DNA of 15,828 nucleotides, taken from IMG/VR virus record IMGVR_UViG_3300031997_002496, one strand, 5' to 3'. The position numbers and the translations under genes were made by a program. This DNA is from a virus. The stretch's first letter is position 1, and each line of letters starts with the position of its first letter. The notes under the pieces were generated by a model. The model searched no databases, was not told the DNA's origin, and saw nothing but the letters and a program-made list of their open reading frames with translations. Below are positions 302 through 15,828 of this stretch, in pieces.

Positions 302-377
302 TGCAGCCTCCTTTGTGTGCAGGGGCTTATACCCAAATCACCCCGCTTTTACGGGTGGCCGGGCCTACACTTGGGGC

Positions 378-731
378 GTGAAGACGGTACTGGTAGTAGA
401 CGACGACACCCTCATACGGAGGCTCGTACATGACGCGCTGACCAAGCGTGGGGGCTACGCTGTGCTCGAAGCCGAGGACGGTGTGGACGGGGTAGCGCGC
501 TTTCTGCTGCACAGGCCTGACATCCTCATCACGGACATCTCGATGCCAAACAGCGACGGCTTGGAGATGCTCGACGTTCTCAAAAAAGGAAAGCTGCTCG
601 AAGGCGTCCGCGTCGTCATCATGTCCGGCGTGTTGAACACGGAGACGCTCCGCGCAAAAAATACCGGCGCCGCCGCGCTACTGAGTAAACCGTTCAACCT
701 TCAAGAGCTGTACGATGCCATTGGGGGATGA
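378..731 (+). CDS. single-domain response regulator (CheY-like receiver domain)
   Basis: The translation has the complete receiver signature: the acidic pair in VLVVDDD, the phospho-acceptor Asp in ILITDISMP, the Ser/Thr position in VVIMSG and the Lys-Pro in LSKPF. There is no output domain. GTG at 378 is the first plausible in-frame start, immediately before the domain. Upstream, the longer ORF from 117 runs into antisense-looking sequence. The GGGG just upstream is a weak SD, so the start is uncertain. Confidence 0.7.
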   Translation: MKTVLVVDDDTLIRRLVHDALTKRGGYAVLEAEDGVDGVARFLLHRPDILITDISMPNSDGLEMLDVLKKGKLLEGVRVVIMSGVLNTETLRAKNTGAAALLSKPFNLQELYDAIGG

Positions 732-734
732 GGC

Positions 735-1010
735 ATGCGTCGAACAAAGCGAGCAGGAATCGGGGAAGAGAAAGTGAAGAAGATTTCCGTCAAGCGACTC
801 CCCCGCAAGACCTCCTTCATTGTGCAGTACTCTGACGGACGTCGAGTAGAAACGTCGTACGTAGAGATCCAAGGAAATGCTACGCTCTACCTGGACCCTG
901 GAACGAAAGAGCCCGTCCTCCGGACAGAAGCAAACGTAAATCTCGGACACGCCACAGGAACCTGCGCGGTATGCGGGGGAGATACAGATGACCAACACGC
1001 CCATGCTTGA
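735..1010 (+). CDS. hypothetical protein (91 aa), translationally coupled to the response regulator
   Basis: ATG at 735 lies 4 nt after the TGA of the receiver gene, and the sequence GGGGGATGAGG sits upstream. The 3' end overlaps the SNF2 gene start by 23 nt. Basic N-terminus, C-terminal CAVCGG. No recognisable domain. Confidence 0.45.
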   Translation: MRRTKRAGIGEEKVKKISVKRLPRKTSFIVQYSDGRRVETSYVEIQGNATLYLDPGTKEPVLRTEANVNLGHATGTCAVCGGDTDDQHAHA

Positions 1011-3207
1011 CCGCTTCAAGATCGCCGCCAAGCAAAAGAAAGAAAAGAAGAAACCGGCGGAGCCGGAGTCCTTCAAATGGACAAGCGGCCCTGAGGAAAA
1101 AGAAGAGCCGGATGGTGCGGTCATGCGCGCCGCAAAGATGTTCGGTAAGGGTATGGGCGGGCTCGCCGCGGGAAATCTGGCAGCGACGCCTCTGGCCATA
1201 GGTACTTTCGCGCTGGACGACCGCCTCAAAGAGCAGAGGCCTGTAGGTACTCGGCAGATTGCCTCAGAGATGGGGCAGAAGATCGACAAGTATACGCACG
1301 GGGATCCTGGGGGCGGAGTCGGAGCGACCAGGGATGGGAAACTGGTTACGCTCATTCGTACGCGGCCAAAGGACTCAGAAGCCATCAAGGCGCACGAAGT
1401 GGGCCACGTCAAAAACGTTGAGATGGTTGGGAAGATGCCGTGGGGCCTCGCGCGAAGCGGCTCCGGAATGTTGACCAGTCTGAGTGGCCCCGCGGCGGGA
1501 GTCTATTCCGCCGTCGCCGACGACCCGTCGTACACCCCCTCGATGGTGCACCTCGGACTGAGCGCGCCGATCCTGTTGGACGAAGCTCTCGCATCTCTCC
1601 GAGCCCTGCATCACATGACTGGAAAGCATGGCCTCGGTACAGGGATGAAGCGGTCCCTCCCTCTGCTGCCAGCCTTTGGGTCGTATGCGGCGCAAGCCCT
1701 CGCACCGGCCGGAATCGTAGCGCTGCGCCGCTTCCTCAAAAAGAGGGAGGATGAAAAAAAAAAGACCAGCGGGGGAGTAGCCGAGAAAACGGCTAAGATC
1801 ACAACCAAGCTCAAGCCGCACCAACAGCGGGTCGTTGACCGCATGGAAGACGAAGACCAGCCGGGCATTGTGGCGGCCCATGGGTTGGGTTCCGGCAAAA
1901 CGCTGACAAGCCTGGCGGTGCAAGAGGCGCTCGGACTTCCTGCCGACATCGTAACACCTGCGGCCCTCCAGTCGAACTACCAAAAAGAGATCAAAGCTCA
2001 CACCACCAAGCATCCCGAAACACACATTCAAAGCTTGGAGGGCGTCGCTCGTACGGGCGGCTCGGGTCTCAAGAGCCCCTTCCTGGTGGTGGATGAAGCC
2101 CACCGTCTGCGAAATGCGGGCAAGGCTCGCACGGGGATCAAAGCTTCTCCAGCCAAGAAACGCCTCGCCCTCACCGGGTCCCTTCTCTACAACCACCCCT
2201 CCGACGTATCAGGCCCCATCAACATGGTAGCGGGGCGCTCCGTGCTTCCGGAGAACCCCGACGAATTCACTCAACGTTTCCTGCAAGACGTCCCCATGAG
2301 TCGCAGTCTCTGGGAACGTCTCCGGGGTACGCCCGCGTTCTATCAGACCCGTCTCAATCCAAAGTCGGTGGGGTCGCTCCAGGCAGCTCTCGACAAGTAC
2401 GTTGATTTTCACCCCGGTAGCACTGAGGACTTCCCGACGCGAGAAGACGCGACTGTCCGCGTACCGATGACCCGCGACCAGATGAAGCTGTACGAAAACG
2501 TTGGTAAGGATCAACCTGGCTGGCTGCGTCGGAAGGTTCTGATGAACCTCCCACCGACCAAAGCCGAAGCGAAACAGCTCAACGCTTTCCTCACCGGTGT
2601 CCGGCAGGTAGCCAACACAACGCAGGGATTTGACACCAGCGCCCACCCGGCGCACCAGCCGAAGATCGACCGAGCTGTGACAGAGCTGCAGAGCATGCTG
2701 GCGAAGAATCCTCGTGCGAAAGCAATCGTCTACTCGCACTACCTCGAATCAGGGATCGACCCGTACAAGAAGAAGCTTGAGGAACTCCACATCCCGCATG
2801 GTTCTTTCACCGGCGAGATGCCGCGCGCTGAACGGGACCGCATGGTGAAAGACTACAACTCCGGGAAGCTGAAAGCCCTGCTGCTCTCCAGCGCCGGCGG
2901 CGAAGGCTTGGACCTCAAGGGAACTCGCCTCATCCAACTCCTCGAGCCCCACTGGAATCAGGAGAAGCTGAAGCAGGTCATCGGTCGCGGCATCCGCTAC
3001 AAGAGCCACTCCGGCCTCCCCGAGAATGAGCGAAACGTCCTGGTGCAGCGGTACCTCGCAACGCGAGCTCCCTACGGAGCCATGGAGCGCCTGGGCCTAC
3101 GCAAGCCCGGCTACGGCGTAGATGAGTACCTCGATGAGATGGGCGCCCGTAAGGAGCAGCTGAACGAGCAGGTCCGGCGCATGCTGCGAGAGCCACAAAG
3201 TACTTGA
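988..3207 (+). CDS. SNF2-family helicase/ATPase with an N-terminal HExxH (zincin-like) domain; polyvalent-protein-like
   Basis: 739-aa ORF. GGGGAG sits 6 nt upstream of the ATG. The N-terminal ~260 aa contain AHEVGH (nt 1393-1407). A Lys-rich linker (KKREDEKKKTSGG) follows. The SNF2 N-domain motifs are present: GLGSGKT (Walker A), VVDEAHRLRN (DEAH box) and LALTGSLLYNHP. The helicase C-domain carries AIVYSHY...LLLSSAGGEGLDL...QVIGRGIRYKSH (motif VI). Confidence 0.85.
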   Translation: MTNTPMLDRFKIAAKQKKEKKKPAEPESFKWTSGPEEKEEPDGAVMRAAKMFGKGMGGLAAGNLAATPLAIGTFALDDRLKEQRPVGTRQIASEMGQKIDKYTHGDPGGGVGATRDGKLVTLIRTRPKDSEAIKAHEVGHVKNVEMVGKMPWGLARSGSGMLTSLSGPAAGVYSAVADDPSYTPSMVHLGLSAPILLDEALASLRALHHMTGKHGLGTGMKRSLPLLPAFGSYAAQALAPAGIVALRRFLKKREDEKKKTSGGVAEKTAKITTKLKPHQQRVVDRMEDEDQPGIVAAHGLGSGKTLTSLAVQEALGLPADIVTPAALQSNYQKEIKAHTTKHPETHIQSLEGVARTGGSGLKSPFLVVDEAHRLRNAGKARTGIKASPAKKRLALTGSLLYNHPSDVSGPINMVAGRSVLPENPDEFTQRFLQDVPMSRSLWERLRGTPAFYQTRLNPKSVGSLQAALDKYVDFHPGSTEDFPTREDATVRVPMTRDQMKLYENVGKDQPGWLRRKVLMNLPPTKAEAKQLNAFLTGVRQVANTTQGFDTSAHPAHQPKIDRAVTELQSMLAKNPRAKAIVYSHYLESGIDPYKKKLEELHIPHGSFTGEMPRAERDRMVKDYNSGKLKALLLSSAGGEGLDLKGTRLIQLLEPHWNQEKLKQVIGRGIRYKSHSGLPENERNVLVQRYLATRAPYGAMERLGLRKPGYGVDEYLDEMGARKEQLNEQVRRMLREPQST
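1754..1763 (+). repeat. A10 homopolymer containing an in-frame A_AAA_AAG slippery heptamer inside the SNF2 gene
   Basis: Ten consecutive A residues in a ~60% GC sequence. The main frame reads gaA AAA AAA AAG (E-K-K-K). This places the dnaX-type X_XXY_YYZ heptamer A_AAA_AAG (1758-1764) in the zero frame, exactly in the linker between the HExxH domain and the SNF2 domain. Confidence 0.6.
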
Positions 3208-3883: not shown

Positions 3884-4378
3884 ATGTTCGTCGTACTCGA
3901 TCTTGACCAGACCCTCGCTGACAATGCCCACCGCGCCCATCACGTAGAAAAGGAACCCAAGAACTGGGATGCGTTCTTTGCTCCGGACCTCGTCATCAAA
4001 GACACGGTCATCGTGGGCGCAGAACGTGTCCTCACCCACTTCAATGACTTGAAATACGACTTCGTCATCCTCACAGGACGTAACGAAGATCTCCGCGACA
4101 CGACCATGCGCTGGATCCAAGAGAAGCTGAGCATCACGGTGCTCGATACACACCTGCTCATGCGCCCCAACGGAAACATGCTCAACGCGGCGGAGTTCAA
4201 GCGGGAGCAGCTGCTCAACTTCAAGCAGGGGCTCGAGAATCGAGACAGCGACTTCATCATCATCGATGATGACTCCGCGGTAGGAGCGGCTCTGAGTTCT
4301 TTCGGTGTCGTCCTCAAGGCGCCGGAGTGCTGGCCTCTTCTTTTCCCGGTCCAGGAACCCGAGAAAATCGAAGAGTAG
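3884..4378 (+). CDS. HAD-superfamily phosphatase (polynucleotide 3'-phosphatase / 5'-nucleotidase-like)
   Basis: AAGGAG lies 8 nt upstream of the ATG. HAD motif I is VVLDLDQTL (DxDxT), motif II is VILTGR, a conserved Lys is present, and motif IV is IIIDDD. At 164 aa it is a cap-less minimal HAD, as in phage PNK phosphatase domains. Confidence 0.8.
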   Translation: MFVVLDLDQTLADNAHRAHHVEKEPKNWDAFFAPDLVIKDTVIVGAERVLTHFNDLKYDFVILTGRNEDLRDTTMRWIQEKLSITVLDTHLLMRPNGNMLNAAEFKREQLLNFKQGLENRDSDFIIIDDDSAVGAALSSFGVVLKAPECWPLLFPVQEPEKIEE

Positions 4379-4379
4379 C

Positions 4380-4392
4380 CCTATACTGGCGC
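4380..4392 (+). promoter_or_regulatory. CTATACTGG motif copy 5 nt upstream of ATG 4393 (possible -10 of a leaderless transcript)
   Basis: cccCTATACTGGcgcATG. No convincing -35. Confidence 0.2.
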
Positions 4393-5028
4393 ATGCCGCT
4401 CAACGGGGCATACTCCTGGAAAGAGGACAATCTCTCCCCCGACGAGCGGGTTGACCATTTTTTCAATTTGATTGATCACGCCGTCGAGAACGGAATTCCG
4501 CTAGCTGAGCTGTTCCACCGGAAGCACGTCAAAAGCTTCCTCCTCTATCTCTTGCAACGGTACGACGAGCCCTGTAAAACCTGCAACCTTCGCCCAACTA
4601 AAGGATCAACCACAATGCCCAAGCTGACTCTGACCAGTACGTTTGCCTCGTCCATCGTCATCGGTGATCCGGCCAACATCACCTTCACCTTGCTCCCCAA
4701 AGAGACGAAGTCCGTAGAAGTGACGGATGTCCAACTCCGCCAGCTCACCCCAGGCCTGGAGAAGCTCAAAGGAGCTGGCTGGCTGAACTACGTGGCAGGC
4801 GTCGCGGCTCCCGTCGCTGTCCCAGAGCCCGTCAAGGTGGTCGAAGACGTGAAGGTCGTCGCAGTGCCGGTGGCCCCGCCGCCCGCTCCTGAGCCCGTTG
4901 CCGCCCCTGAACCCGTAGCGGCCCCTGAGCCTGCCGCTGAGGAAGCCGCCGCCCCTGAGGCTCCCGTGGCGAAGGTGGAAGAGGCTCCGAAGCAGAACCT
5001 CTTCGACCGGAAGAATCGCAACCGCTAA
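4393..5028 (+). CDS. hypothetical protein with a C-terminal Pro/Ala-rich repeat region (possible virion/structural protein); an internal alternative start at 4615 is plausible
   Basis: Continuous frame. ATG 4393 has no SD but follows a CTATACTGG motif. In-frame ATG 4615 has AAAGGA 9 nt upstream and would yield a 137-aa protein (MPKLTLTSTF...). The C-terminus carries VAVPEPVKV...APEPVAAPEPVAAPEPAAEEAAAPEAP. Confidence 0.5.
   Translation: MPLNGAYSWKEDNLSPDERVDHFFNLIDHAVENGIPLAELFHRKHVKSFLLYLLQRYDEPCKTCNLRPTKGSTTMPKLTLTSTFASSIVIGDPANITFTLLPKETKSVEVTDVQLRQLTPGLEKLKGAGWLNYVAGVAAPVAVPEPVKVVEDVKVVAVPVAPPPAPEPVAAPEPVAAPEPAAEEAAAPEAPVAKVEEAPKQNLFDRKNRNR
4886..4960 (+). repeat. imperfect 18-bp tandem repeats (gcccctgaRcccgtWgcS, about 3.5 copies) encoding an (A/P)PEPVA linker
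   Basis: Direct reading: the copies are gctcctgagcccgttgcc, gcccctgaacccgtagcg and gcccctgagcctgccgct, plus a partial fourth. Confidence 0.6.
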
Positions 5029-5038
5029 GCCGTTTTTC

Positions 5039-5053
5039 ACTATACTCGGAGGC
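5039..5053 (+). promoter_or_regulatory. CACTATACTCGG motif copy 7 nt upstream of ATG 5054 (possible -10 of a leaderless transcript)
   Basis: tcaCTATACTcggaggcATG. The 7-nt -10-to-ATG spacing fits a leaderless start. Alternatively GGAGG is an SD, but only 1 nt from the ATG. Confidence 0.2.
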
Positions 5054-5470
5054 ATGAGCCACCCTCTCGAGAATGCCTACTGGACCGGCCAGGTCGCGGC
5101 CTGTGAATCGTTTGGCGTCAAAGAAGCTGGAGTCCTCGGACAGATCGGCAAGTGGGGCGGCAAAGCCCTGCAATGGGGTGGGCGTGCCGCCGGAGTTGTA
5201 CCGGTCGCCGGTGAGGCCGTCGGCGCTATCGCTGGTGGCCTCGGCGGCGTGATGCAGGGCGCTGCCCAAGGTGAAGGCTGGAAGGGCATGGCCGCTCGCG
5301 GAGCGGCCGGTGCTGCCACTGGCGCGATGCCTCTCGGAGCTGGTCTGGTCGCTGGCGCTGCGAGTGATCTCGCGCTCGACAAGATGCTGGCGAAGAAACC
5401 CCCGGGGCCTCAGAACGCCCCAATGCCGGGGATGATGGGGCAGGGGCACCTTCCGGGGCATGCTGCGTGA
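5054..5470 (+). CDS. Gly/Ala-rich protein with glycine-zipper-like segments (138 aa)
   Basis: ATG 5054 is preceded by CTATACTcGGAGGc. The protein has GxxxG/AxxxA runs (AGEAVGAIAGGLGGVMQGAAQG, AAGAATGAMPLGAGLVAGAAS). Its stop overlaps the next start. Caveat: high GC alone can inflate Gly/Ala content. Confidence 0.5.
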   Translation: MSHPLENAYWTGQVAACESFGVKEAGVLGQIGKWGGKALQWGGRAAGVVPVAGEAVGAIAGGLGGVMQGAAQGEGWKGMAARGAAGAATGAMPLGAGLVAGAASDLALDKMLAKKPPGPQNAPMPGMMGQGHLPGHAA

Positions 5471-6759: not shown

Positions 6760-9700
6760 GTGGGTGAGTACGACCGGGGAGCTCGAGCAGCGCTAGCCCT
6801 CTTCAGCAAGGAGGCCAATACCGGTGTGACCGCGGGCCACGTCAATCCTCTTCCGGTCGCAGGCAGCGGGTTCAATCAAGTAGCACAACAGGGAAATCCG
6901 ATGGCAGGACGGGTCGCCCACTCCCTCGTCGGTGGCGCCACTGGCGGAATTCTCAACGCGATGATGGCCCCCTCAGGGGACCGCATGCGGCAGGGGGCCA
7001 TTGGCTTTGCGTCAGACGCCATCGGAAGCGCCCTGGGCCCTTGGGGGATGATTGCCAGCCCCCTTCTGAACATGGGGCTCCAACAGCTGACATCCTCAAG
7101 TGGGGAAGAGAAGCGCGCTGACCACGCGGATGATCGGCTGAAAGAGCGAATCAAAACGGAGTTCCCGCCGGACACGCTGGCAAAACTCAGAGCACAAGCA
7201 AAAGAACTCGAGCTCGCTCCGGGACGGTACTACCTCCCGATGAAAGACAAGGCCGGGAACACAGCGGCAATTGCAGCGTTCAAGACCGTTGGCCCGAAGG
7301 ATCAGCTGGTACTGGCGACAGTTCTGAAACCCAAGAACAACCCTCCGTCAGGCACATCACTTTCGCACCTGATGAAGCAACCTCTCGGGTCCCAGATTGC
7401 CAAGGTGGATGCGTCCCCCAAGACATACACGATCCGCAAGAACGACGCAGGGCGCCTGACGTGCACCTGCAAGAGCTTCAAGTTCAACCACCGAGCGGCG
7501 GGCACGAACTGTAAGCACATCGACGAGCACCTTGGAAACACGAAGGAGTCTGCGAACCGGTTTGAGCAGTTCCTCCTCAACCAGGGTAACGTCAGCGATC
7601 CTCAGAAGACGCAACTCCGTGGACAGTTCGGACGGCTGACCCCTCGCCCGACGGCGAAGTCGAAGGCCCTCACCAGCCAAGCTTTGGCGCTGGAGCCTGG
7701 TCCGCAGCAAGCAGCGTCTCTGCGGTCCATGCGGACGTTGATGCAGACGCCGCACTACCCGGACAAAGACAGCCTCGAACGAACGCGCCGAATTCACGAG
7801 CTCTCCCTCACACCAAAGCTTCGAGCAATGGGCGGCAAGAGTCTTGACGCTCGGCGTGCTGCGGCGACCGACCCCACGTTCTTCTACGACGAGAAGAAAC
7901 GGTTCGCGACGCCAGGAGAGTACCAGGCCAAGTCGTTACGTCTCGGCGAAGAAACAGCTCCCACAGGGCTCCGGGCCGAACACGTTCTTCGCTCTGCGGC
8001 GGCAGGGAAACCCATCGAAACCAAGCTCTCCCCTGAAGCAGGGCGGCTGGTGATGTACCCAGACGCCTTGAAGGTGCAGCGTGAGCGCCTGAACAAGCAA
8101 CGCACCACCCCCGGCCAAACCAAACCCTGGGACCCCACCGACATGCGCCAGACCCTTGAGCACGAGGGGGCGGAGCGCAAGATGGTTCTCGAAGGCGTGC
8201 GCAGAGGCAAGCCGTCCACAGCGTACTCTTCGCACTGGGGCAGTGAGGCTGACGTCGCGGCGAACCAGGTCGCAGCCAAGGATCCCAAGAGTCAGTGGGT
8301 TCCAAACAACCCCGACTCCTTCATCGAGAAGGAACACTGGGACCGCCTCTACAAGCAGCACGGCGGGACTCGGGGACGCCCCATCCCGTCAGACAGTCGA
8401 GCTTCACGCAGCTTGGATAGATCAATCGCAGGCGTCATGGCGAAGACCCCCTTGACCGAGAAAACGCGGCCAGATCTCACAGCCGCCTTGGACGCAGGAG
8501 TCATGGGAATGCCTCTCCATCCGGAACTCGAAGCGCGTCTGAAGCGTGACTTCACCAAACTGAAGCCGGAGCTCGGTGAAACCTCCGCGCCCTGGGACGA
8601 CGCATCCCGGAGCCAAAAGGCTCTCGAAGTCCTGAAGAGTCGAACCCGGATGAAGACGTCCGCGGAAGGCGTGCGTCACTCTGGTGAACCCATCGACAAC
8701 CAGGAGGAGCCTCAGACCACGGAGGCTCCGATGCCTCCGCCTGAGAAGAAGAAGTCCTGGCTCCCTGCCTTGGGTACCGCGGCGGCGCTGGGACTTGGGA
8801 CGTACGGCCTCCTTCGCCGACCCTCGTTCTCTGCGAACCCCGCCCTGCGGAAAACACAGCAGTTGGCGGCGGAGAAAGGGTTCCACCGCATCGTTCCGGT
8901 GATGAAGTCCACAGATCTCCCAGACCCTGAGGCGGGGTTCCTGGGGCGGCTGCACCACAAGATTCAACCCAAAGTCGATGAGCAGGGCCGCATGAACTTG
9001 CTCAACCGCTTCAAGTTCTGGGCGCAGGAAGGCGGAGAAGCCGTCCCTATCGGGTACACGGACAAAGGGAAGGCGTTCATCCCCAACGGAGGGAAGCCGG
9101 TCAAGACTGAAGGCGTTGTCTTCGGTCGCCCCATGCTCGAGCCGAAGGAACGCAAACTTGTACGGGGTGGGGTGGACATCGAGGGGTCGGCGAAGACCCA
9201 ACGAGCCCTTACCGACATGGGGTTGAAGGGCAAGGGCATGGAAGCAACCCTCCTTCAGCGCCATTCCCCAGGAGCGGCGCCAAAGACGGTCGTCGATCTC
9301 TCCAAGTTCATGGCGCCTCCAAAGGGGAGAGAAACTTCGAACCAGCGGGTTGCGCGGATTCGCGAAATTCAGAAAGCAATGCAGGCAAAATTCAAAGGTA
9401 CGGAGATGGAAGACCACCTCCTCAAACCGACCCTTGGATTCAACTCCGGCGGGAAGTTCCCCATGAGCGGGGACGATTGGGGCAAACACCTCGCCAGGTT
9501 CGACAAAGCCATGGCAGATCCGGCGTTCAAGGCGAAATTTCAGAAAGCCACCCCCGACGAATTCGCCAACATGGTGTGGGACAAGAAGATTCTCGAGGGA
9601 CACACGCTCCACGAGATGCTGAAGAACCCGCAGTCGGCGATTGCTCAGCAGCAGATCCCCAACCGGCTTGGGGAGTGGCGCGTCAACGTTACCAAGGGTG

Positions 9701-10158
9701 AAGCCCCGTTGAGCATGATGGCGCCGCGTGGGGCTACCGACAACCCGATGGAGTCTCTCAAAGAACTGGCAACTGAGGGAGTAAGCCCCTTCAAGATCAA
9801 ACAGTTCGTTGAAGGCCACGTCCGAAAGCTTCCGAAGCACTACCGCGAAGGAACGTACGGCGCTGACGTGATGCCGTACTACACGCCTGAAGGGAAGCTG
9901 GACTACAAATTCGTCGAGCTCAACCCATCAGAGCGGGCGGGGTACCACGGTAGCGCCGGTGGCGGCTCAGGCTTCCTCGACGCCAGCAACATCCCCTGGG
10001 CGGGGCACGCACACTACCGCACGGCGACGGGCCGCCACACGACGCCAGTGGCTATGGCCGGAGGCTTGGCAGCGGCTGGGCTGGGCGGTATGGCGGCTCG
10101 AGCGCTGACGCCTGAGCAGAAGGATGAGGAAGAAGACGCCCCACATCCTGTGGGCTAA
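6760..10158 (+). CDS. very large protein (1132 aa) with a Gly/Ala-rich N-terminus, a SWIM-type zinc finger and one predicted TM helix; candidate internal virion / ejection protein
   Basis: Uninterrupted 3.4-kb frame. GTG 6760 has GAGGTG 4 nt upstream. ATG at 6901 (MAGRVAHS...) is an alternative start. A SWIM-like CxCx(n)CxH is present (LTCTCKSFKFNHRAAGTNCKH, nt ~7454-7520). A hydrophobic helix (SWLPALGTAAALGLGTYGLL, ~8754-8815) is also present. The N-terminal 16 aa repeat the peptide motif seen at the ends of the two preceding ORFs. Confidence 0.8.
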   Translation: MGEYDRGARAALALFSKEANTGVTAGHVNPLPVAGSGFNQVAQQGNPMAGRVAHSLVGGATGGILNAMMAPSGDRMRQGAIGFASDAIGSALGPWGMIASPLLNMGLQQLTSSSGEEKRADHADDRLKERIKTEFPPDTLAKLRAQAKELELAPGRYYLPMKDKAGNTAAIAAFKTVGPKDQLVLATVLKPKNNPPSGTSLSHLMKQPLGSQIAKVDASPKTYTIRKNDAGRLTCTCKSFKFNHRAAGTNCKHIDEHLGNTKESANRFEQFLLNQGNVSDPQKTQLRGQFGRLTPRPTAKSKALTSQALALEPGPQQAASLRSMRTLMQTPHYPDKDSLERTRRIHELSLTPKLRAMGGKSLDARRAAATDPTFFYDEKKRFATPGEYQAKSLRLGEETAPTGLRAEHVLRSAAAGKPIETKLSPEAGRLVMYPDALKVQRERLNKQRTTPGQTKPWDPTDMRQTLEHEGAERKMVLEGVRRGKPSTAYSSHWGSEADVAANQVAAKDPKSQWVPNNPDSFIEKEHWDRLYKQHGGTRGRPIPSDSRASRSLDRSIAGVMAKTPLTEKTRPDLTAALDAGVMGMPLHPELEARLKRDFTKLKPELGETSAPWDDASRSQKALEVLKSRTRMKTSAEGVRHSGEPIDNQEEPQTTEAPMPPPEKKKSWLPALGTAAALGLGTYGLLRRPSFSANPALRKTQQLAAEKGFHRIVPVMKSTDLPDPEAGFLGRLHHKIQPKVDEQGRMNLLNRFKFWAQEGGEAVPIGYTDKGKAFIPNGGKPVKTEGVVFGRPMLEPKERKLVRGGVDIEGSAKTQRALTDMGLKGKGMEATLLQRHSPGAAPKTVVDLSKFMAPPKGRETSNQRVARIREIQKAMQAKFKGTEMEDHLLKPTLGFNSGGKFPMSGDDWGKHLARFDKAMADPAFKAKFQKATPDEFANMVWDKKILEGHTLHEMLKNPQSAIAQQQIPNRLGEWRVNVTKGEAPLSMMAPRGATDNPMESLKELATEGVSPFKIKQFVEGHVRKLPKHYREGTYGADVMPYYTPEGKLDYKFVELNPSERAGYHGSAGGGSGFLDASNIPWAGHAHYRTATGRHTTPVAMAGGLAAAGLGGMAARALTPEQKDEEEDAPHPVG

Positions 10159-10188: not shown

Positions 10189-10613
10189 CACTGAGTCCTG
10201 ACAACCAGGCACCAGTTGGTCCAACGCTTACGGAATGCGTTGTGCGTCATCTTCGTTCCCAAGAGCCGGAGCGGCGCCGGGTCCGCCAGGTAGACGTACT
10301 TCGCGTCACAGCCGTGCACGACGCCGAAGTGGTCGCCGTCGAGATGAACAAGCAGCAGCTTCTCCTTCTTCAGCGCGGCTTGCAGCTCTCGGAATCGCAT
10401 GCGGTAGTTGTGCTGCACGTGAAGCTTTCGCTTGCGAAACGCTTTGATCATCGCATGTACTCGCGTGCCCTTTTCAGGGGTGCACCCAAGCTCACGCTTC
10501 AAGCGGCGGTACGGTGACCGGTCGCCGAAGTGATGAAGGATCATCGCTACAGAGTGCACTCCGCACGAATAGCTGTCGAGCTGAATGGATCTACGGAAAA
10601 CGGATATCGTCAC
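10188..10613 (-). CDS. standalone C39-like papain-fold cysteine peptidase domain (141 aa)
   Basis: GTG start with AGGAGG 6 nt upstream on the minus strand. Catalytic Cys context YSCGVHSVAMILHHFG matches the bacteriocin-processing C39 signature ([DE]CGxAxLAM(I/V)LxxxG). The His block is DHFGVVHG, followed by VYLADPA (the conserved DPA/Asp region). No ABC-transporter domains are attached. Confidence 0.7.
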   Translation of the reverse strand: MTISVFRRSIQLDSYSCGVHSVAMILHHFGDRSPYRRLKRELGCTPEKGTRVHAMIKAFRKRKLHVQHNYRMRFRELQAALKKEKLLLVHLDGDHFGVVHGCDAKYVYLADPAPLRLLGTKMTHNAFRKRWTNWCLVVRTQ

Positions 10614-10665
10614 AGAGTACCTCCTTTCTACGGGTTCAGCCCTTATACCCGGAGGGGGCTCCTTT

Positions 10666-11196
10666 TTACGCCGCTCGGAGGTGCTTAGGTGTATTCCGAA
10701 CGGGGTCAGTTTTCAGGTACTCGCACAGCTTCTCCAGCTGATTGGGGGAAATCGTGTACCGCTGCATGCGGCCCTTCTTCCCCTTGGTACGGTACGTCGT
10801 TAGCTTCCAGTCCTGCCGAAGGGCTTCTCGGGCTCGCTTCAGTTGGTACTGGTGGTAGCCTGTCTCTCGAGCAGCGCTCTCCATCGAGAACACGTTTGCC
10901 CTCGTACGCATGTTGAGAGACTGGATCTTCTTGAAGACGCTGGCGGGTGTTCTGTTCAAGATTTTAGCGATCTCTCGAAAACCCCAACGGTCAACCAGAA
11001 CGTACAAGCGAGCAACCTCCGACTGAGACCACTTCTTGTATGTCCCTTCGAAAACTGGGATCTGATTACGCCGCATGAATTTGCCGACGCCGGAACTATT
11101 ACGGCCAAGACGTCGTGCGAGCTCTGCTTTAGACGTAGTACTGCCAAACTGCCAGAGGAATTCGATCTCCTCCGGCGTGAATGCTCCTTTTGCCAT
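10666..11196 (-). CDS. DNA-binding regulator: two tandem N-terminal HTH-like repeats plus a C-terminal Xis/MerR-like HTH (176 aa)
   Basis: ATG at 11196 has GGTGGGGG 4 nt upstream. The duplicated segments are FTPEEIEFLWQFGSTTSKAELARRLGRNSSGV and WSQSEVARLYVLVDRWGFREIAKILNRTPASVFKKI (W..G....E.A..L.R). The C-terminal segment FSMESAARETGYHQYQLKRAREAL...RYTISPNQLEKLCEYL fits the excisionase/HTH_17 pattern. Confidence 0.65.
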   Translation of the reverse strand: MAKGAFTPEEIEFLWQFGSTTSKAELARRLGRNSSGVGKFMRRNQIPVFEGTYKKWSQSEVARLYVLVDRWGFREIAKILNRTPASVFKKIQSLNMRTRANVFSMESAARETGYHQYQLKRAREALRQDWKLTTYRTKGKKGRMQRYTISPNQLEKLCEYLKTDPVRNTPKHLRAA

Positions 11197-11258
11197 AGTA
11201 CCCCCACCACTTAGATTACCTTCCAGCTGCCTGGCGACATCAGGTGCACGGCTAGGCC

Positions 11259-11300
11259 GGAAACCTGTGTCGCCAAGCCAGTGTCGCTGTCGCCGCTACG
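11259..11300. promoter_or_regulatory. operator-like cluster: GTGTCGC direct repeats plus a perfect GTCGCCG-cta-CGGCGAC palindrome, in the upstream region of the HTH regulator gene
   Basis: Plus strand reads cctGTGTCGCcaagccaGTGTCGCtGTCGCCGctaCGGCGACtttactg. The repeat centres are 14 nt apart. It lies 60-100 bp upstream (minus sense) of the regulator start at 11196. Confidence 0.3.
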
Positions 11301-11327
11301 GCGACTTTACTGAGTAGACTGGTGAGG

Positions 11328-11636
11328 TCAAAAGCCTTTCGGCCAAACGCTGTGAACCGCGTGCTCTTTCAAGACAGCGCGGATCATGTTCTCCACCTGC
11401 TTCTTAGGGACCGTGAGATCAGAAGCGGCGGCGCTCATGGCAAGATACAAAGCGTCACCGCCTACGGTGTGTCGGACGAGGTACCGCGTGAACGCGGCAA
11501 GGAGTTCAAACGGGATATCATCTGGTCCCGGTCCGTGTTGAACAGGCTCGCGCTGCAGCCCTCTCCGATCCCCATCGCCTCCTCCATTTCCTTTTTCAAC
11601 TTCGGCTCCGCGTCGATATACATCCCGCAGCGCCAT
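11328..11636 (-). CDS. hypothetical protein, or the C-terminal part of a frameshifted gene (conflicts with 11462..11770)
   Basis: Only the last ~60 aa look like real protein (PFELLAAFTRYLVRHTVGGDALYLAMSAAASDLTVPKKQVENMIRAVLKEHAVHSVWPKGF). The N-terminal part is low-complexity. Confidence 0.25.
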   Translation of the reverse strand: MALRDVYRRGAEVEKGNGGGDGDRRGLQREPVQHGPGPDDIPFELLAAFTRYLVRHTVGGDALYLAMSAAASDLTVPKKQVENMIRAVLKEHAVHSVWPKGF

Positions 11637-11770
11637 TGAATCCCCACCTGTCGAAGGTACGGGCAACCCACTTTCTTGTCCCATGTCTTTCCCTCCTCGT
11701 TCATTCGGTAAGCGCTGAAGCCGCAGGGGCCTCGGCGGCATTCGAAACCACACCCTACGCAGTCAGCCAT
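11462..11770 (-). CDS. Cys-rich metal-binding small protein (N-terminal CxxCxxxCxxxxC cluster); the 3' boundary is uncertain because of a frame conflict
   Basis: ATG at 11770 overlaps the stop of the upstream gene (ATGGCTGA). MADCVGCGFECRRGPCGF...GCPYL...WRCGMY. The first ~70 aa look protein-like; the tail does not. An overlapping frame (11328..11636) has a convincing C-terminal 60 aa. Confidence 0.4.
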   Translation of the reverse strand: MADCVGCGFECRRGPCGFSAYRMNEEGKTWDKKVGCPYLRQVGIQWRCGMYIDAEPKLKKEMEEAMGIGEGCSASLFNTDRDQMISRLNSLPRSRGTSSDTP

Positions 11771-12074
11771 CTTTGAGCAACCATTCGGCGATCAAGTTAG
11801 CTACCTTGTTACTTAGCTCCTCGTCGCCGTCCTCCTCCAAGCCACAGATGTAGTGGCAAAAGTTGTGGACGACGTACCGCTCGAGCGACATATCGGGGCT
11901 ATTCCGCCGCCACGCCTCGATGTTCAACCGCACCTCCGGGGGCGACGTGAAGTCGCACCGGTCTGTCGCCGCCGCCGGTTTCACCGCCGGGAACGGCATG
12001 TTGTAGATCCTGCACAAGAGGTTGAACCGCGCCCGTGCCGTCTTGAACAACTTGCTACGCTTTGAAGCCGCCAT
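11763..12074 (-). CDS. hypothetical protein (103 aa) with an HxxCHxxC motif
   Basis: ATG at 12074 with GGAGGA 3-4 nt upstream. YVVHNFCHYICGLEEDGDEE may bind metal. Overlaps the next gene by 8 nt. Confidence 0.6.
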   Translation of the reverse strand: MAASKRSKLFKTARARFNLLCRIYNMPFPAVKPAAATDRCDFTSPPEVRLNIEAWRRNSPDMSLERYVVHNFCHYICGLEEDGDEELSNKVANLIAEWLLKDG

Positions 12075-12273
12075 GCTTCCTCCTGTTGGCGTTTGGGTTT
12101 GCAGCGATGCACGTTGGGCATCGCCGTTCAGTCTTCCCGGACTTGAGCCCGAGCTCCTTCAGGTTGATGCTGTGCCCACAAGACAGCGCCTCTGAGATCG
12201 TGCGCCCGTCTTTGTCACGGATGCACTTCTCGACGGACTTGGTGTTCGGGCTACCGCTTCGGTAGAGGGTCAT
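12055..12273 (-). CDS. small zinc-ribbon-like protein (72 aa from ATG 12273)
   Basis: EKC...SCGH...RRCPTC gives four Cys plus a His. The N-terminal extension of the long ORF (to 12432) is GC-rich junk-like sequence (GCGGTGGLRKPASACLRC). The SD is weak. Overlaps the downstream gene by 20 nt. Confidence 0.4.
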   Translation of the reverse strand: MTLYRSGSPNTKSVEKCIRDKDGRTISEALSCGHSINLKELGLKSGKTERRCPTCIAANPNANRRKHGGFKA

Positions 12274-12520
12274 AGCCCAAGTCCAGGGGTGGTGGCGTGG
12301 TGGGATCCGTGTCCCCCCACCAGCAACACTCGGAAGAGGGAAGCAGCGAAGGCACGCCGATGCAGGTTTTCGTAACCCACCCGTGCCGCCACAACCCGCG
12401 TACCCAGAAGACTGGGGACCCGTAAGCTCCACAAATTCGGTCGGTCAAGGAGAGGGCTCCGCCAACTCCCAACCGAGAATCACCAGGGCTTTGTCTACCG
12501 CGGCCGCTGACGTCCAGAGG

Positions 12521-12748
12521 TCACGTCTCGCCAGCTGATCCTTTACCAGCAGGAGGGACAGAACCTCCTTGTCGGGGATCGGTGCAGAGACCTTCTTTGA
12601 TGTATCTTTCCGCTTGGCGGCCATAGTGTCCTTGTAGTGTCCAGGCCATGCCTGAATCGATTAGCTTTTGGAAGAAGGCCACCTCCTCCGCGCTGGTCAT
12701 CTCGTCGTTCTCGTACTTGATCAGGTCCTCGGTCAAAATCTGATTCAA
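12521..12748 (-). CDS. small acidic hypothetical protein (75 aa; TTG start overlapping the ligase stop, or an internal ATG)
   Basis: TTGA overlap with the ligase gene stop. NQILTEDLIKYENDEMTSAEEVAFFQKLIDSGMAWTLQGHYGRQAERYIKEGL. Low-complexity Gly/Ser tail. Confidence 0.35.
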   Translation of the reverse strand: MNQILTEDLIKYENDEMTSAEEVAFFQKLIDSGMAWTLQGHYGRQAERYIKEGLCTDPRQGGSVPPAGKGSAGET

Positions 12749-13863
12749 ATGTTTTCCCTCATTCGAAGCGCCACCGGGAATCGGGGGACGCCGTTTTTGG
12801 TTGTGTAGCCCTGGAACTTCACCGTCAGCAACTTGCCGACGACCAGTCCAGGTCGCTCGTAGTACTGCTTCAGGCTTTCGAGCTCGCCTTTCATCTTGGC
12901 CCGGAACTCGACTCCAGCGTTCGTCTTGCAGACGAAGATGCCGTGGCCCGCCAACTTGCCACGACCCTCTTCGACTCCGATGACAACGAACTCCTCGTCG
13001 ATGAACTCCTTGACCTTCTGAAGATCGTACGAGCGCTTGTTGACGTACTCGCCCGCCATGTTCCTAACCATCAGACCTTCATATCCTTGTACCAAGAATC
13101 GGTCGAAGGTGAGCATCAACTCGTCCTCGTCGGCGATCTCAACGGTCTCCACCTGGCAGAGGCTTCCGACTAGCGTGAACGCCCCCAAGAGGGCGTGACG
13201 ATCCGCGAACGTCCCCGGGCCTGCGACGTCGTAGACGTGGTACTCAACGACCTCGTGCCCAGGCTTGGGATCCTCGTTCCGAATGAAGCTGGTAAGCTCT
13301 TCGAACTTCTCCCGGTACGCGTGGTTGTAGAGCTCGCCGTCCAGCACGACGCTCCGTTGCCCACGACTCTCCGCCCAGAACTCGACGTCCCGGATGATGT
13401 GGGGCAAACCGGTGATGGGCTTCCGGGTGCGAGACCAGAGCGTCGCTCTGCCCTCCGCGTCCACCATGGCGATGCAGCGATGCCCATCGAACTTGGGCTG
13501 AGCAAACGCCGGGTACGTGATTTTGTGCCCCTGCTCGTCGAAGCGGTGAGCCAACATCGGGTCCACCCCTCCCAGGACCAAGGCGTCCCGTTTGCCCTTC
13601 CTGGCGTCGCCAAGGCTCTCGACGTAGCCCTTGGCCGTCTTCTTCTTCTCCCACTGGGCCTTGGCCTCGAGCTCCGCCTGCTCTCGAGGAGTGGTCTCGT
13701 TGGCTCGACCACGGTTCTTGCCGACCTTGATGACGTCGGACGTTTCTTGAATCTTACCACCCACCTGCCCGAAGCGGGTGATGATGGTGTTCTCGGCGGT
13801 CTCGATTTGCCACATCTGGTCAGCGCCGGTGCTGGTCTTCTTGTACAGGGTTGGTAGCTTCAT
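12745..13863 (-). CDS. ATP-dependent DNA ligase (phage T7/Chlorella-virus-type minimal ligase, 372 aa)
   Basis: GGGAG lies 4 nt upstream of ATG 13863. Motif I is KFDGHR (adenylation lysine). Motif III is VLDGELY. Motif IV is EGLMVR. Motif V lysines are in DLQKVK. An OB-fold-like C-terminal region follows. Confidence 0.9.
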   Translation of the reverse strand: MKLPTLYKKTSTGADQMWQIETAENTIITRFGQVGGKIQETSDVIKVGKNRGRANETTPREQAELEAKAQWEKKKTAKGYVESLGDARKGKRDALVLGGVDPMLAHRFDEQGHKITYPAFAQPKFDGHRCIAMVDAEGRATLWSRTRKPITGLPHIIRDVEFWAESRGQRSVVLDGELYNHAYREKFEELTSFIRNEDPKPGHEVVEYHVYDVAGPGTFADRHALLGAFTLVGSLCQVETVEIADEDELMLTFDRFLVQGYEGLMVRNMAGEYVNKRSYDLQKVKEFIDEEFVVIGVEEGRGKLAGHGIFVCKTNAGVEFRAKMKGELESLKQYYERPGLVVGKLLTVKFQGYTTKNGVPRFPVALRMRENI

Positions 13864-13875
13864 GGGACTCCCGGT

Positions 13876-13910
13876 TTGAGGGTGGAAAAATACGAGCTAT
13901 ACTGGGGAAC
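13876..13910 (+). promoter_or_regulatory. candidate sigma70-like promoter TTGAGG-16 nt-TATACT (carrying the recurrent CTATACTGG motif), divergent from the ligase operon
   Basis: -35 TTGAGG at 13876-13881, a 16-nt spacer, then -10 TATACT at 13898-13903. The predicted TSS (~13911) falls just before GGAGG (13912-13916) and GTG 13921. The same 9-mer occurs at 4381-4389, and a near-copy at 5039-5048. Confidence 0.4.
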
Positions 13911-13920
13911 TGGAGGCTTC

Positions 13921-14887: not shown

Positions 14888-15820
14888 TTAGCCCTGAATG
14901 CTGACCGTGGGCTTCGCCGTGCCATTACCCGGCACGACCGTACCCTGCGTCAGCTTCTGCATCAGAGGAGCGAGCGGCGTGTTGGCGAACACCTTCGACA
15001 GGGCGTCGGAGACGGAGTCTCCGCCGATTGCCTGCTGAATGCTCCAGGCCTTGGCGACCTGAACCATGGTGTCGTTGTTGCTGAGCGCCAGCAGCGCCTC
15101 GGAGAACCCGGCCTGCGCTGCGCCGAACTTCGAGACGATTGCTTCTGCTTCCGCCTTCATGCCGATGATGGCTTGGTCCTGCGCCATCTTCTTGAGGCCG
15201 AGCACCTGGTCCTGTGCCCGCTTCTGGCGGGACAGTTCCTGGTCGAACTCGAAATTCTTGAGTTCCTCAGCCGATGCTTCGAGGTCCTTTTGAGTCCCGA
15301 TCCGCTTCAGCTCGTTCGCCAGCTTGGCCATGACGACGGTGAGCTCAGAAGCTGCGAGCTCGGTGCTGAGCTCGTTCTTCCGCATCAGGGTGGCGGCGCG
15401 CACTTCAGCCTCCTCCTTGACGACGCTCTCCTTCTCCTTGGTGACCTCGAGGCCCCGCTTCAGCTGGGACAGCTCGATGTTGGTCTTGACCACCGCGAGG
15501 GCGCTCTGCTTGAACGTCCCTTCGATGGCCTGGTCCAGGCAGTCCACCGCCAAGACTTCGACGTCGGTGACGCGCATCCCGTTCTCCGGGAAGCTGCGGC
15601 CCTTCGCCTTGCCCGTGCCTTCCGGAGCCCCGAGCACCAGGCCCTGAAGAATCTCAGTGGCGTTGGGACGGAAGTCCTCGAAGCGGAGCTTCTTGACGGC
15701 GCCCTTCAGATCCGAGCGCATGCGGTCACAGAGGAACTTGACGTAGTTCTCCACGTTCCACCACTTCGAGCTGTCACCCTCGAAGTTCACCCGGTAGCCC
15801 AGGCGCAGGTTGAACTGCAC
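14888..15820 (-). CDS. SPFH/band-7 (flotillin/YqiK-like) protein, 5'-truncated by the window edge
   Basis: The frame stays open to the window end (…DYVQFNL), so the true start lies beyond 15828. The SPFH-like core includes MRVTDVEVLAVD. A long Ala/Glu-rich coiled-coil follows, with the flotillin-type KAEAEAIVSKFGAAQAG repeat and a C-terminal tail. The stop at 14888 is followed by the strong terminator. Confidence 0.5.
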   Translation of the reverse strand: MQFNLRLGYRVNFEGDSSKWWNVENYVKFLCDRMRSDLKGAVKKLRFEDFRPNATEILQGLVLGAPEGTGKAKGRSFPENGMRVTDVEVLAVDCLDQAIEGTFKQSALAVVKTNIELSQLKRGLEVTKEKESVVKEEAEVRAATLMRKNELSTELAASELTVVMAKLANELKRIGTQKDLEASAEELKNFEFDQELSRQKRAQDQVLGLKKMAQDQAIIGMKAEAEAIVSKFGAAQAGFSEALLALSNNDTMVQVAKAWSIQQAIGGDSVSDALSKVFANTPLAPLMQKLTQGTVVPGNGTAKPTVSIQG

Positions 15821-15828
15821 GTAGTCCT

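Follow-up and report, generated by a model that had tools for sequence, protein, structure and literature searches.

A 7-bp element, C followed by the hexamer TA(T/C/A)A(C/T)T, was found directly 5′ of gene starts in a 15,828-nt stretch of phage-type DNA (IMG/VR virus record IMGVR_UViG_3300031997_002496; this whole stretch is hereafter called the window) and at the corresponding gene junctions of related phages. Judged from comparison of these sequences, it is likely the -10 element of a class of -35-independent promoters that would be read by a sigma-70-family RNA polymerase holoenzyme and would give rise to mostly leaderless mRNAs. A preliminary description of the window had viewed TATACT in the same way, as a -10 hexamer mostly without a -35 partner, with the start codon at +1 and leaderless mRNAs; at the comparative level, this view gains support from the conservation of the motif, its position, its presence in divergent junctions, its spacing and the start codons that follow it. 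From these features we infer RNA polymerase binding, the points at which transcription would start and the probable identity of the sigma factor.

Genomes compared

The window belongs to a clade of uncultured phages with genomes of about 190 kb and about 60% GC. Its close relatives are IMG/VR contigs of 168 to 190 kb, with a ligase identity of 75 to 85%. Syntenic DNA was assembled by contig walking for five genomes: G1 (21 kb; the window plus a 21-kb ENA metagenome contig that matches it), G2 (31 kb), G3 (71 kb), G4 (21 kb; of lower GC) and G5 (46 kb). This provided a motif search space of about 180 kb in the clade of the window and covered about 37% of the genome of one relative. Orthologous junctions were aligned regardless of whether the motif was present, and the profile derived from them was weighted by family. 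Megablast with the complete window as query found no match among 50,697 phage records, and the best tblastn match of the ligase was at 36% identity, to phiEco32/7-11-like phages, with no close cultured phage found.

Conserved unit of the motif

The motif had been noticed as the 9-mer CTATACTGG at 4381-4389 and 13897-13905 with a near-copy, CTATACTCG, at 5040-5048; all three were located on the plus strand as reported, and the start codons downstream of them are ATG 4393, GTG 13921 and ATG 5054. Common to these sites is CTATACT, which was detected on the plus strand at 4381 (site A), 5040 (site B) and 13897 (site C), each time just 5′ of a gene start. The hexamer TATACT occurs four times in the window compared with 0.55 copies expected, a number reached in none of 200 dinucleotide-preserving shuffles, while for the degenerate 9-mer with one mismatch allowed the count is not significant (three found vs 1.89 expected).

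When the orthologous junctions of the five genomes were aligned, the 7-mer was found to be kept while its flanks had diverged beyond alignment, and the conserved unit could be written as C plus TA(T>C,A)A(C>T)T. Site A reads CTATACT in G1, G2 and G5 and CTATATT in G3, with no counterpart left in G4; site B is CTATACT throughout the five genomes, with a spacer of 6 to 7 nt and flanks that could not be aligned; and site C reads CTATACT in G1, G3, G4 and G5 and CTATGCT in G2. A fourth window site, site I, was found in the form CTACACT-N6-GTG in G1, G2, G3 and G5 and as CTAAACT-N6-GTG in G4. Numbered as a -10 element, T-12, A-11 and T-7 (T1, A2 and T6 of the hexamer) are invariant at all gene-linked sites, which is the TAnnnT pattern, and changes are confined to hexamer positions 3 (T/C/A), 4 (A; G once) and 5 (C/T). 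The C at -13 precedes all 23 gene-linked copies of TATAYT and none of the 11 unlinked copies; it is present at 100% of the gene-linked sites, among whose hexamers TATACT predominates. A relaxed pattern with G at hexamer position 4 was also tried; it returned unconserved singletons only, which were treated as chance.

Outside these 7 bp little else was conserved. The trailing (S)G (GG or CGG) that the preliminary description had counted as part of the motif is not conserved at orthologous sites, and the identity of the exact 9-mer at two window sites is thus partly a coincidence laid over a real 7-mer. The family-weighted profile holds zero information at -35, at -15/-14 and between the hexamer and the start codon; neither a -35 hexamer nor the TG of an extended -10 (TGn) was detected in it, and no UP-like element or other conserved block was found across families. 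As the sigma-S class shows, promoters can function with neither of these partner elements, and their lack is compatible with a promoter. TTGAGG-N16-TATACT at 13876-13903 is the sole sigma-70-type -35/-10 pair among the window sites; the pair is present at site C, as had been described, but it is common to only three of the five genomes.

The short extent of conservation also bears on an aside of the preliminary description, namely that the motif may be the promoter core for a T7-like single-subunit phage RNA polymerase. Site B reads CACTATAC in the window and so resembles CACTATAG, which had been cited as the core of such promoters. This resemblance did not survive comparison, since conservation extends over only 7 bp and leaves out the CA of CACTATAC, in whose place the site-B orthologs have cc, at, gc or cc, and no conservation was seen upstream from -14 or across -6 to +6. 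T7-type promoters are conserved over about 20 bp spanning the start site. Searches of Pfam, PHROGs and PDB sequences revealed no RNA polymerase-like protein in the 71 kb covered, about 37% of the genome, and three large proteins (1,132, 1,208 and 830 aa) compared with PDB sequences for RNA polymerase-like folds had no matches. With conservation limited to 7 bp, the single-subunit reading was rejected and is given next to no probability.

Position of the motif relative to genes

All 24 copies of CTATAYT in the 180 kb were found 5 to 18 nt 5′ of a start codon, a placement expected for 9.7% of random positions, and almost all of the open reading frames (ORFs) opened in this way are at least 100 aa in length. 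Copy number is only moderately above a first-order Markov expectation (5 vs 0.38 in G1, 7 vs 1.5 in G3 and 3 vs 3.4 in G4); thus, the signal lies in position and conservation and not in count. A test free of gene calls, in which an ORF of 60 aa or more was required to start 5 to 9 nt after the hexamer, gave a similar picture: 10 of 19 TATACT copies qualified, compared with about 6% of control hexamers. Besides TATACT, enrichment at this distance was seen solely for Shine-Dalgarno words such as AAGGAG, which indicates that other genes of the phage use Shine-Dalgarno sequences. In the 71 kb of G3, the pattern CTA[ACT]A[CT]T-N5-7-RTG was matched nine times, and all nine matches open ORFs of at least 70 aa; Markov simulation of G3 produced a mean of 0.12 such matches, with a maximum of two in 300 runs.

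Spacing, start codons and predicted leaderless transcripts

The gene-linked sites were sorted into ten families, including I, H and J/J′, which were recovered once T, C or A was allowed at hexamer position 3. Eight families, comprising 29 sites, have a geometry suited to leaderless transcripts: I, A and B in the window and five in relatives. At these sites the gap between hexamer and start codon is most often 6 nt (n = 19), with 7 nt (n = 6), 5 nt (n = 3) and 9 nt (n = 1) making up the remainder, and with 6 nt the +1 position of a sigma-70-type -10 element coincides with the opening base of the codon. The sequence of the spacers is not conserved, no conserved Shine-Dalgarno sequence was found, and protein conservation starts exactly at the start codons, which are ATG at 19 sites, GTG at 10 and TTG at none. 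The two leadered families, C and G, are organized differently: the gap is 16 to 18 nt and holds GGAG or AGGAG, and TTG is used at two of six sites, leadered site C being the only gene-linked site at which TTG was found. A GGAGG at 5048-5052 lies 1 nt from ATG 5054 of site B and is unconserved in the orthologs.

These features agree with what is known of leaderless genes. A TA-like signal about 10 bp 5′ of the translation start is a signature of such genes (PMC3160421), and at the leaderless-geometry sites a -10-like signal was found about 10 bp 5′ of the start codon with no Shine-Dalgarno sequence between the two. In mycobacteria, leaderless translation accepts only AUG or GUG at the 5′ end, while TTG fails there and works behind a Shine-Dalgarno sequence (PMC4633059); the restriction to ATG and GTG observed here follows the same rule. 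Leaderless genes of Actinobacteria and Deinococcus-Thermus likewise have TAnnnT right 5′ of the start, no Shine-Dalgarno sequence and ATG or GTG only (PMC3160421, PMC4633059). They differ in that those are cellular genomes with a degenerate TANNNT, whereas the phage 7-mer is near-invariant and other genes of the phage have Shine-Dalgarno sequences of AAGGAG type. At sites I, A and B and the five families of the relatives, transcription would thus begin at the A or G of the ATG or GTG, and the resulting mRNA, having neither a 5′ leader nor a Shine-Dalgarno sequence, would be a substrate for leaderless translation; at site C and in one other family, the element 16 to 18 nt 5′ would yield a leader of about 10 nt carrying GGAG.

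Two start codons in the window were reassigned. An independent gene caller starts the site-C gene at GTG 13882, which would place the motif within the reading frame. In two relatives the hexamer and GGAG are separated by a stretch with a 1-nt indel, which shows this stretch to be noncoding and fixes the start at GTG 13921. The response regulator of site I probably starts at GTG 378 and not at 228: its N-terminus (V/M-KTVLVVDDD) is conserved, NCBIfam receiver profiles align to it from profile position 1, and in G4 homology starts only at residue 51 of the long form. If the GTG 378 start is right, the 170 nt back to the divergent gene (which ends at 208) are noncoding yet strongly conserved as DNA (atgcagcctcctttgtgtgcaggggcttatacccaaa). 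The same stretch holds a small hairpin with compensatory changes and a TTTTAC loop at 347-352, and in families E and I, but no others, TT(G/T)TAC precedes the hexamer by exactly 13 nt, a spacer too short for a normal -35 element.

Divergent junctions and the level at which the motif may act

Several sites lie between divergent genes, in gaps of 57 nt (site C), 48 nt (site E, in the G1 contig to the left of the window) and 16 nt (J/J′) in which nothing else is conserved. Sites F and H stand back to back in relatives, with 27 nt between the start codons if the GTG start of H is right and 78 nt to the called ATG. Since a promoter is obligatory in such divergent gaps of 16 to 57 nt, the presence of C, E, F/H and J/J′ in them supports a promoter function. 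The J/J′ junction of G3 is the most compact; it forms the perfect palindrome CCTAAATTTAGG and can be written CAT-gtCCTAAATTTAGGtc-ATG, with two overlapping -10 elements in opposite orientation and the A residues of the two start codons 17 nt apart. Symmetric bidirectional promoters of bacteria (Warman et al. 2021), as summarized in PMC10268837, have divergent transcription start sites 7 to 25 bp apart, mostly 18 bp. The predicted start points of the G3 junction are within this range; it differs in that its distance of 17 nt is not the modal 18, both predicted transcripts are leaderless and belong to protein genes, and the junction is in a relative and not in the window. An overlapping opposite-strand pair like J/J′ was also seen in a more distant relative, near 18837-18852 of contig L005.

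An alternative is that the motif acts in the RNA, either by recruiting ribosomes in a non-Shine-Dalgarno manner or as a site at which polycistronic transcripts are processed by an endonuclease. In eight families the motif is indeed 5 to 7 nt (once 9 nt) before the start codon, where AAGGAG-type Shine-Dalgarno words pile up, and sites A and B are within a co-directional gene string. Against this, the motif at sites C and G is 16 to 18 nt 5′ of the gene and a separate GGAG is conserved at the proper Shine-Dalgarno distance; the motif is found in divergent junctions of 16 to 57 nt, where a promoter is needed, and as an overlapping opposite-strand pair in a palindrome; and its variation is TAnnnT-like, which also argues against a signal at the RNA level. 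For the regions upstream of the four window sites, folding z-scores relative to shuffled controls ranged from -0.4 to +0.6, leading to rejection of a structured RNA, and no Rfam match was found in these regions. Action in the RNA is therefore highly improbable.

Candidate sigma factors

The preferred reading is that of a -10 element (C at -13, TA at -12/-11, final T at -7) that would be recognized in DNA by a sigma-70-family RNA polymerase holoenzyme. The reader would most likely be the primary sigma of the host (group 1), or else a group 2 sigma close to it; a sigma factor of the phage itself is placed second and a dedicated RpoS-type sigma third. Distant relatives (46 to 48% protein identity) were found to have canonical TTGACx-N17/18-C-TAYAAT-N6-RTG promoters of the same geometry, which suggest that the reader is a primary-type sigma of the host and that leaderless expression is a feature of the wider group.

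It is unlikely, though worth weighing, that the element is read by the 233-aa sigma factor of the phage and defines a phage-specific middle or late class, as gp55 of T4 does with TATAAATA. The gene for this protein was identified in G3 and G5, with 84% identity between the two (phrog_351, E = 2.7e-6; Pfam Sigma70_r3, 37 bits vs a cutoff of 25.3), and promoter classes of phage sigma factors are typically near-invariant, without a -35 element and devoted to a subset of genes, as is this motif. T4 late promoters themselves consist of a short, near-invariant -10 motif and have no -35 element, T4 being a phage with rIIA/rIIB-type genes, and their mRNAs have leaders; their sequence differs from the present motif, no gp55-like sigma was seen, and the sigma that was found has a region 3 and resembles group 3. 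Its closest, below-threshold similarity is to group 3 sigma factors (FliA/WhiG, SigB/F/G), which read -10 elements other than TATAAT. In region 2 it has STHVASRLPK in place of the STYATWWIRQ of RpoS and is thus without the aromatic residues used on TATAAT-type hexamers; primary sigma factors also have STYATWWIRQ at this place. The gene is located among baseplate genes, in a structural block of about 20 kb with no copies of the motif, and it was not seen on the 21-kb contig of the window. The canonical -35/-10 promoters of the distant relatives, with the same C-TAYAAT and geometry, also argue against the phage factor, which on these sequence features is the less likely reader.

The third candidate is a stationary-phase or general-stress sigma of the host, of RpoS type (group 2), in which case the genes would be expressed in starved or stressed hosts. 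CTATACT is the -10 consensus of RpoS (sigma-38) in Escherichia coli and Pseudomonas, and sigma-38 promoters have no distinctive -35 element (PMC11784136, PMC3923258, PMC5650638), and the phage element has the identical 7-nt core, including C(-13), and likewise no -35. However, RpoS promoters are not characteristically leaderless, and their extended consensus, KCTAYRCTTAA, is not matched here: position -14 is C (0.60), G (0.17) or T (0.16), and the hexamer is not followed by TAA (-6 to -4). As the -10 boxes of sigma-70 and sigma-38 are very much alike, the core cannot discriminate between them, and the match is a resemblance and not an assignment. The host may also be without RpoS. E. coli handles leaderless GTG poorly (PMC4633059), and RpoS is best known from bacteria of the E. 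coli kind, for which strong initiation at a leaderless GUG is not characteristic. A dedicated RpoS-type reader is accordingly very unlikely. It is quite unlikely that the match is functional in a wider sense, the gene block being expressed through a host stress/stationary sigma, or through a primary sigma with sigma-S-like specificity at -13, together with leaderless translation. If this wider reading were true, the genes could be expressed in starved, slow-growing soil hosts in which expression dependent on sigma-70 and Shine-Dalgarno sequences is weak.

Points that weigh against the promoter reading

Reading by a host sigma-70-family holoenzyme remains our preferred explanation; several points nonetheless count against it. 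First, sites A and B are in gaps of 14 and 25 nt within a co-directional gene string, which means that read-through transcripts must exist as well. Second, the motif occupies the position where a Shine-Dalgarno sequence would sit. Third, the lineage encodes a sigma factor that could be the reader. Fourth, the sites are clustered in part of the DNA examined, and the outer regions of about 20 kb with structural genes have no copies of the motif; this promoter class is thus one among others in the phage. Fifth, sites within a family share descent, so that the independent cases number about 10 families and not about 35 sites. Finally, the capacity of the host for leaderless translation, especially from GUG, is assumed.

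Gene context

The coordinates of the motif sites and of the surrounding features, among them replication genes of phage type, are listed in Table 1. At site B of G2 and G5, a GC-rich hairpin was observed to abut the motif, the last C of the hairpin being the C at -13 (L002:15558-15575, minus strand, and the G5 ortholog). Its two versions, GGGGAGC-ttcg-GCTCCCC and GGGGAGA-cgt-TCTCCCC, show compensatory changes; the hairpin resembles a terminator set immediately next to a promoter, and is absent in G1, G3 and G4. Searches of Pfam, PHROGs and NCBIfam gave no function for the genes downstream of sites A to G. Site D precedes a gene of 137 aa, and in relatives a transfer-messenger RNA (tmRNA) and a cluster of transfer RNAs (tRNAs; Met, Ser, Gln and Ala) follow directly downstream on the same strand (L002:3825-5888, L003:4456-6101 and L035:13392-14834; the tmRNA tag peptide in L003 is ANDNVDFPQYALRAA); site D may drive this cluster as well.

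Elsewhere in the window, the minus-strand cluster at 10545-12744 contains five small genes with long gaps of 120 to 171 nt, and in one of these gaps (11637-11762) a Shine-Dalgarno sequence with ATG may start an unannotated small ORF. No second promoter motif was evident in the gaps of this cluster or at the start of the G3 structural operon. The D5-like protein of 176 aa is a candidate phage transcription factor and could act on one promoter class. The 1,132-aa protein is conserved at its ends with the middle replaced or expanded; it has 1,482 aa in G3, and only the first 200 aa or so are common with G2, a mosaic pattern typical of host-interaction proteins. The major-vault-protein-like protein at the right end is unusual for a phage. 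G3 was also found to encode rIIA/rIIB, baseplate-J, a protein with a lysozyme domain, a tmRNA and tRNAs and the sigma-factor-like gene.

Table 1. Coordinates of motif sites and other features (positions refer to the window unless a contig or genome is named).
Feature	Position	Strand	Description
Site I, variant -10 element CTACACT	365..371	+	C at -13, hexamer TACACT at 366-371; then N6 and GTG 378; absent from the preliminary list of sites
Family I	365-380	+	CTACACT-N6-GTG, five genomes; CTAAACT in G4
Receiver-only response regulator, 117 aa	378..731	+	Putative leaderless GTG start; 167-aa form of the gene caller begins at 228
SNF2 helicase	988-3207		
Stray TATACT	1289..1294	-	In the SNF2 helicase ORF; preceded by G; unconserved; no start codon 5-18 nt on; outside the feature
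HAD phosphatase, polynucleotide-kinase type	3884-4378		
Site A, -10 element CTATACT	4381..4387	+	5 nt (ggcgc) before ATG 4393; in the 14-nt gap after the stop codon of the polynucleotide-kinase-type phosphatase gene
ORF, 211 aa	4393..5028	+	Putative leaderless start; conserved from the first codon (M/V-P-L/I-N/T-G); no Pfam or PHROG match
Site B, -10 element CTATACT	5040..5046	+	7 nt before ATG 5054; 25-nt gap
ORF, 138 aa	5054..5470	+	Putative leaderless start; first gene of a co-directional string running to 10158
1,132-aa protein	6760-10158	+	No Pfam or PDB sequence match; marginal match to a PHROG family of unknown function (E = 0.0013)
Transcription regulator, T5 D5-like, 176 aa	10666-11196	-	PHROG 323 'transcriptional regulator, D5-like', E = 1e-11; weak helix-turn-helix, Myb and sigma-70 region 4 matches
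ATP-dependent DNA ligase	12745-13863	-	
-35-like hexamer TTGAGG	13876..13881	+	16 nt 5′ of the site-C hexamer; TTGAG kept in G2 and G3, missing from G4 and G5
Site C, -10 element CTATACT	13897..13903	+	Gap of 57 nt separating the divergent ligase gene (-) and 13921 operon (+)
Shine-Dalgarno GGAGG	13912..13916	+	4 nt separate it from GTG 13921; part of a predicted leader of about 11 nt; GGAG in five of five genomes
ORF, 153 aa	13921..14382	+	Leadered case; first of a three-gene rightward operon; ortholog start GTG or TTG
Major-vault-protein-like protein of about 919 aa, C-terminal part	14888-15828; L003:6148-8907	-	ORF open at the right end of the window; Pfam Vault, Vault_3 and MVP_shoulder (major-vault-protein repeats plus shoulder domain)
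Family H	Relatives		CTAAACT-N6-GTG; back to back with site F
Families J and J′	L119:3095-3116 (G3 67884-67905)	both	16-nt divergent junction, perfect palindrome; C-TAAATT-N6-ATG each way
Phage sigma-70-family protein, 233 aa	L116:17845-18546, and G5 ortholog	+	Among baseplate/lysozyme genes; region 3 above the Pfam cutoff

Relationship to phage promoters and implications

Among phages, the nearest functional parallel was found in phiYS40 and Lalka27a, large lytic phages of Thermus: the majority of the transcripts mapped in them begin with the A or G of the start codon, and their -10 elements are distinctive (bioRxiv 10.64898/2026.04.20.719267; PMC7403470). Like the sites described here, the promoters of these phages, and the extended -10 promoters of the middle and late classes in P23-45, are based on the -10 element with little or no -35; those of the Thermus phages are read by host RNA polymerase. 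The two groups differ in that the Thermus elements are TGx-extended or TAGGGT and the present one is C-TATAYT, the phages have no sequence relationship, and the starts are mapped there and predicted here. This is an unrelated clade of uncultured phages that would use a known strategy with a near-invariant 7-mer of its own, and not a new mechanism.

While not mechanistically surprising, the motif is useful for annotation and for host inference. For the clade, a simple rule (C-TAnAYT, 5 to 7 nt, then ATG or GTG) locates promoters and fixes start codons, and it corrects two gene calls in the window, those of the response regulator (378, not 228) and of the ligase-adjacent gene (13921, not 13882). 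As to the host, the phage response regulator compared with 185,579 species genomes had matches of at most 39% identity across many phyla, among which metagenome-assembled genomes of Acidobacteriota were frequent without being decisive; these are weak hints of a host among soil Acidobacteriota. The leaderless geometry suggests that the host translates leaderless mRNAs well, including those initiated by GUG, and this narrows host prediction. Overall, a high-GC environmental phage group would join the few phages, such as those of Thermus, with systematic leaderless transcription.

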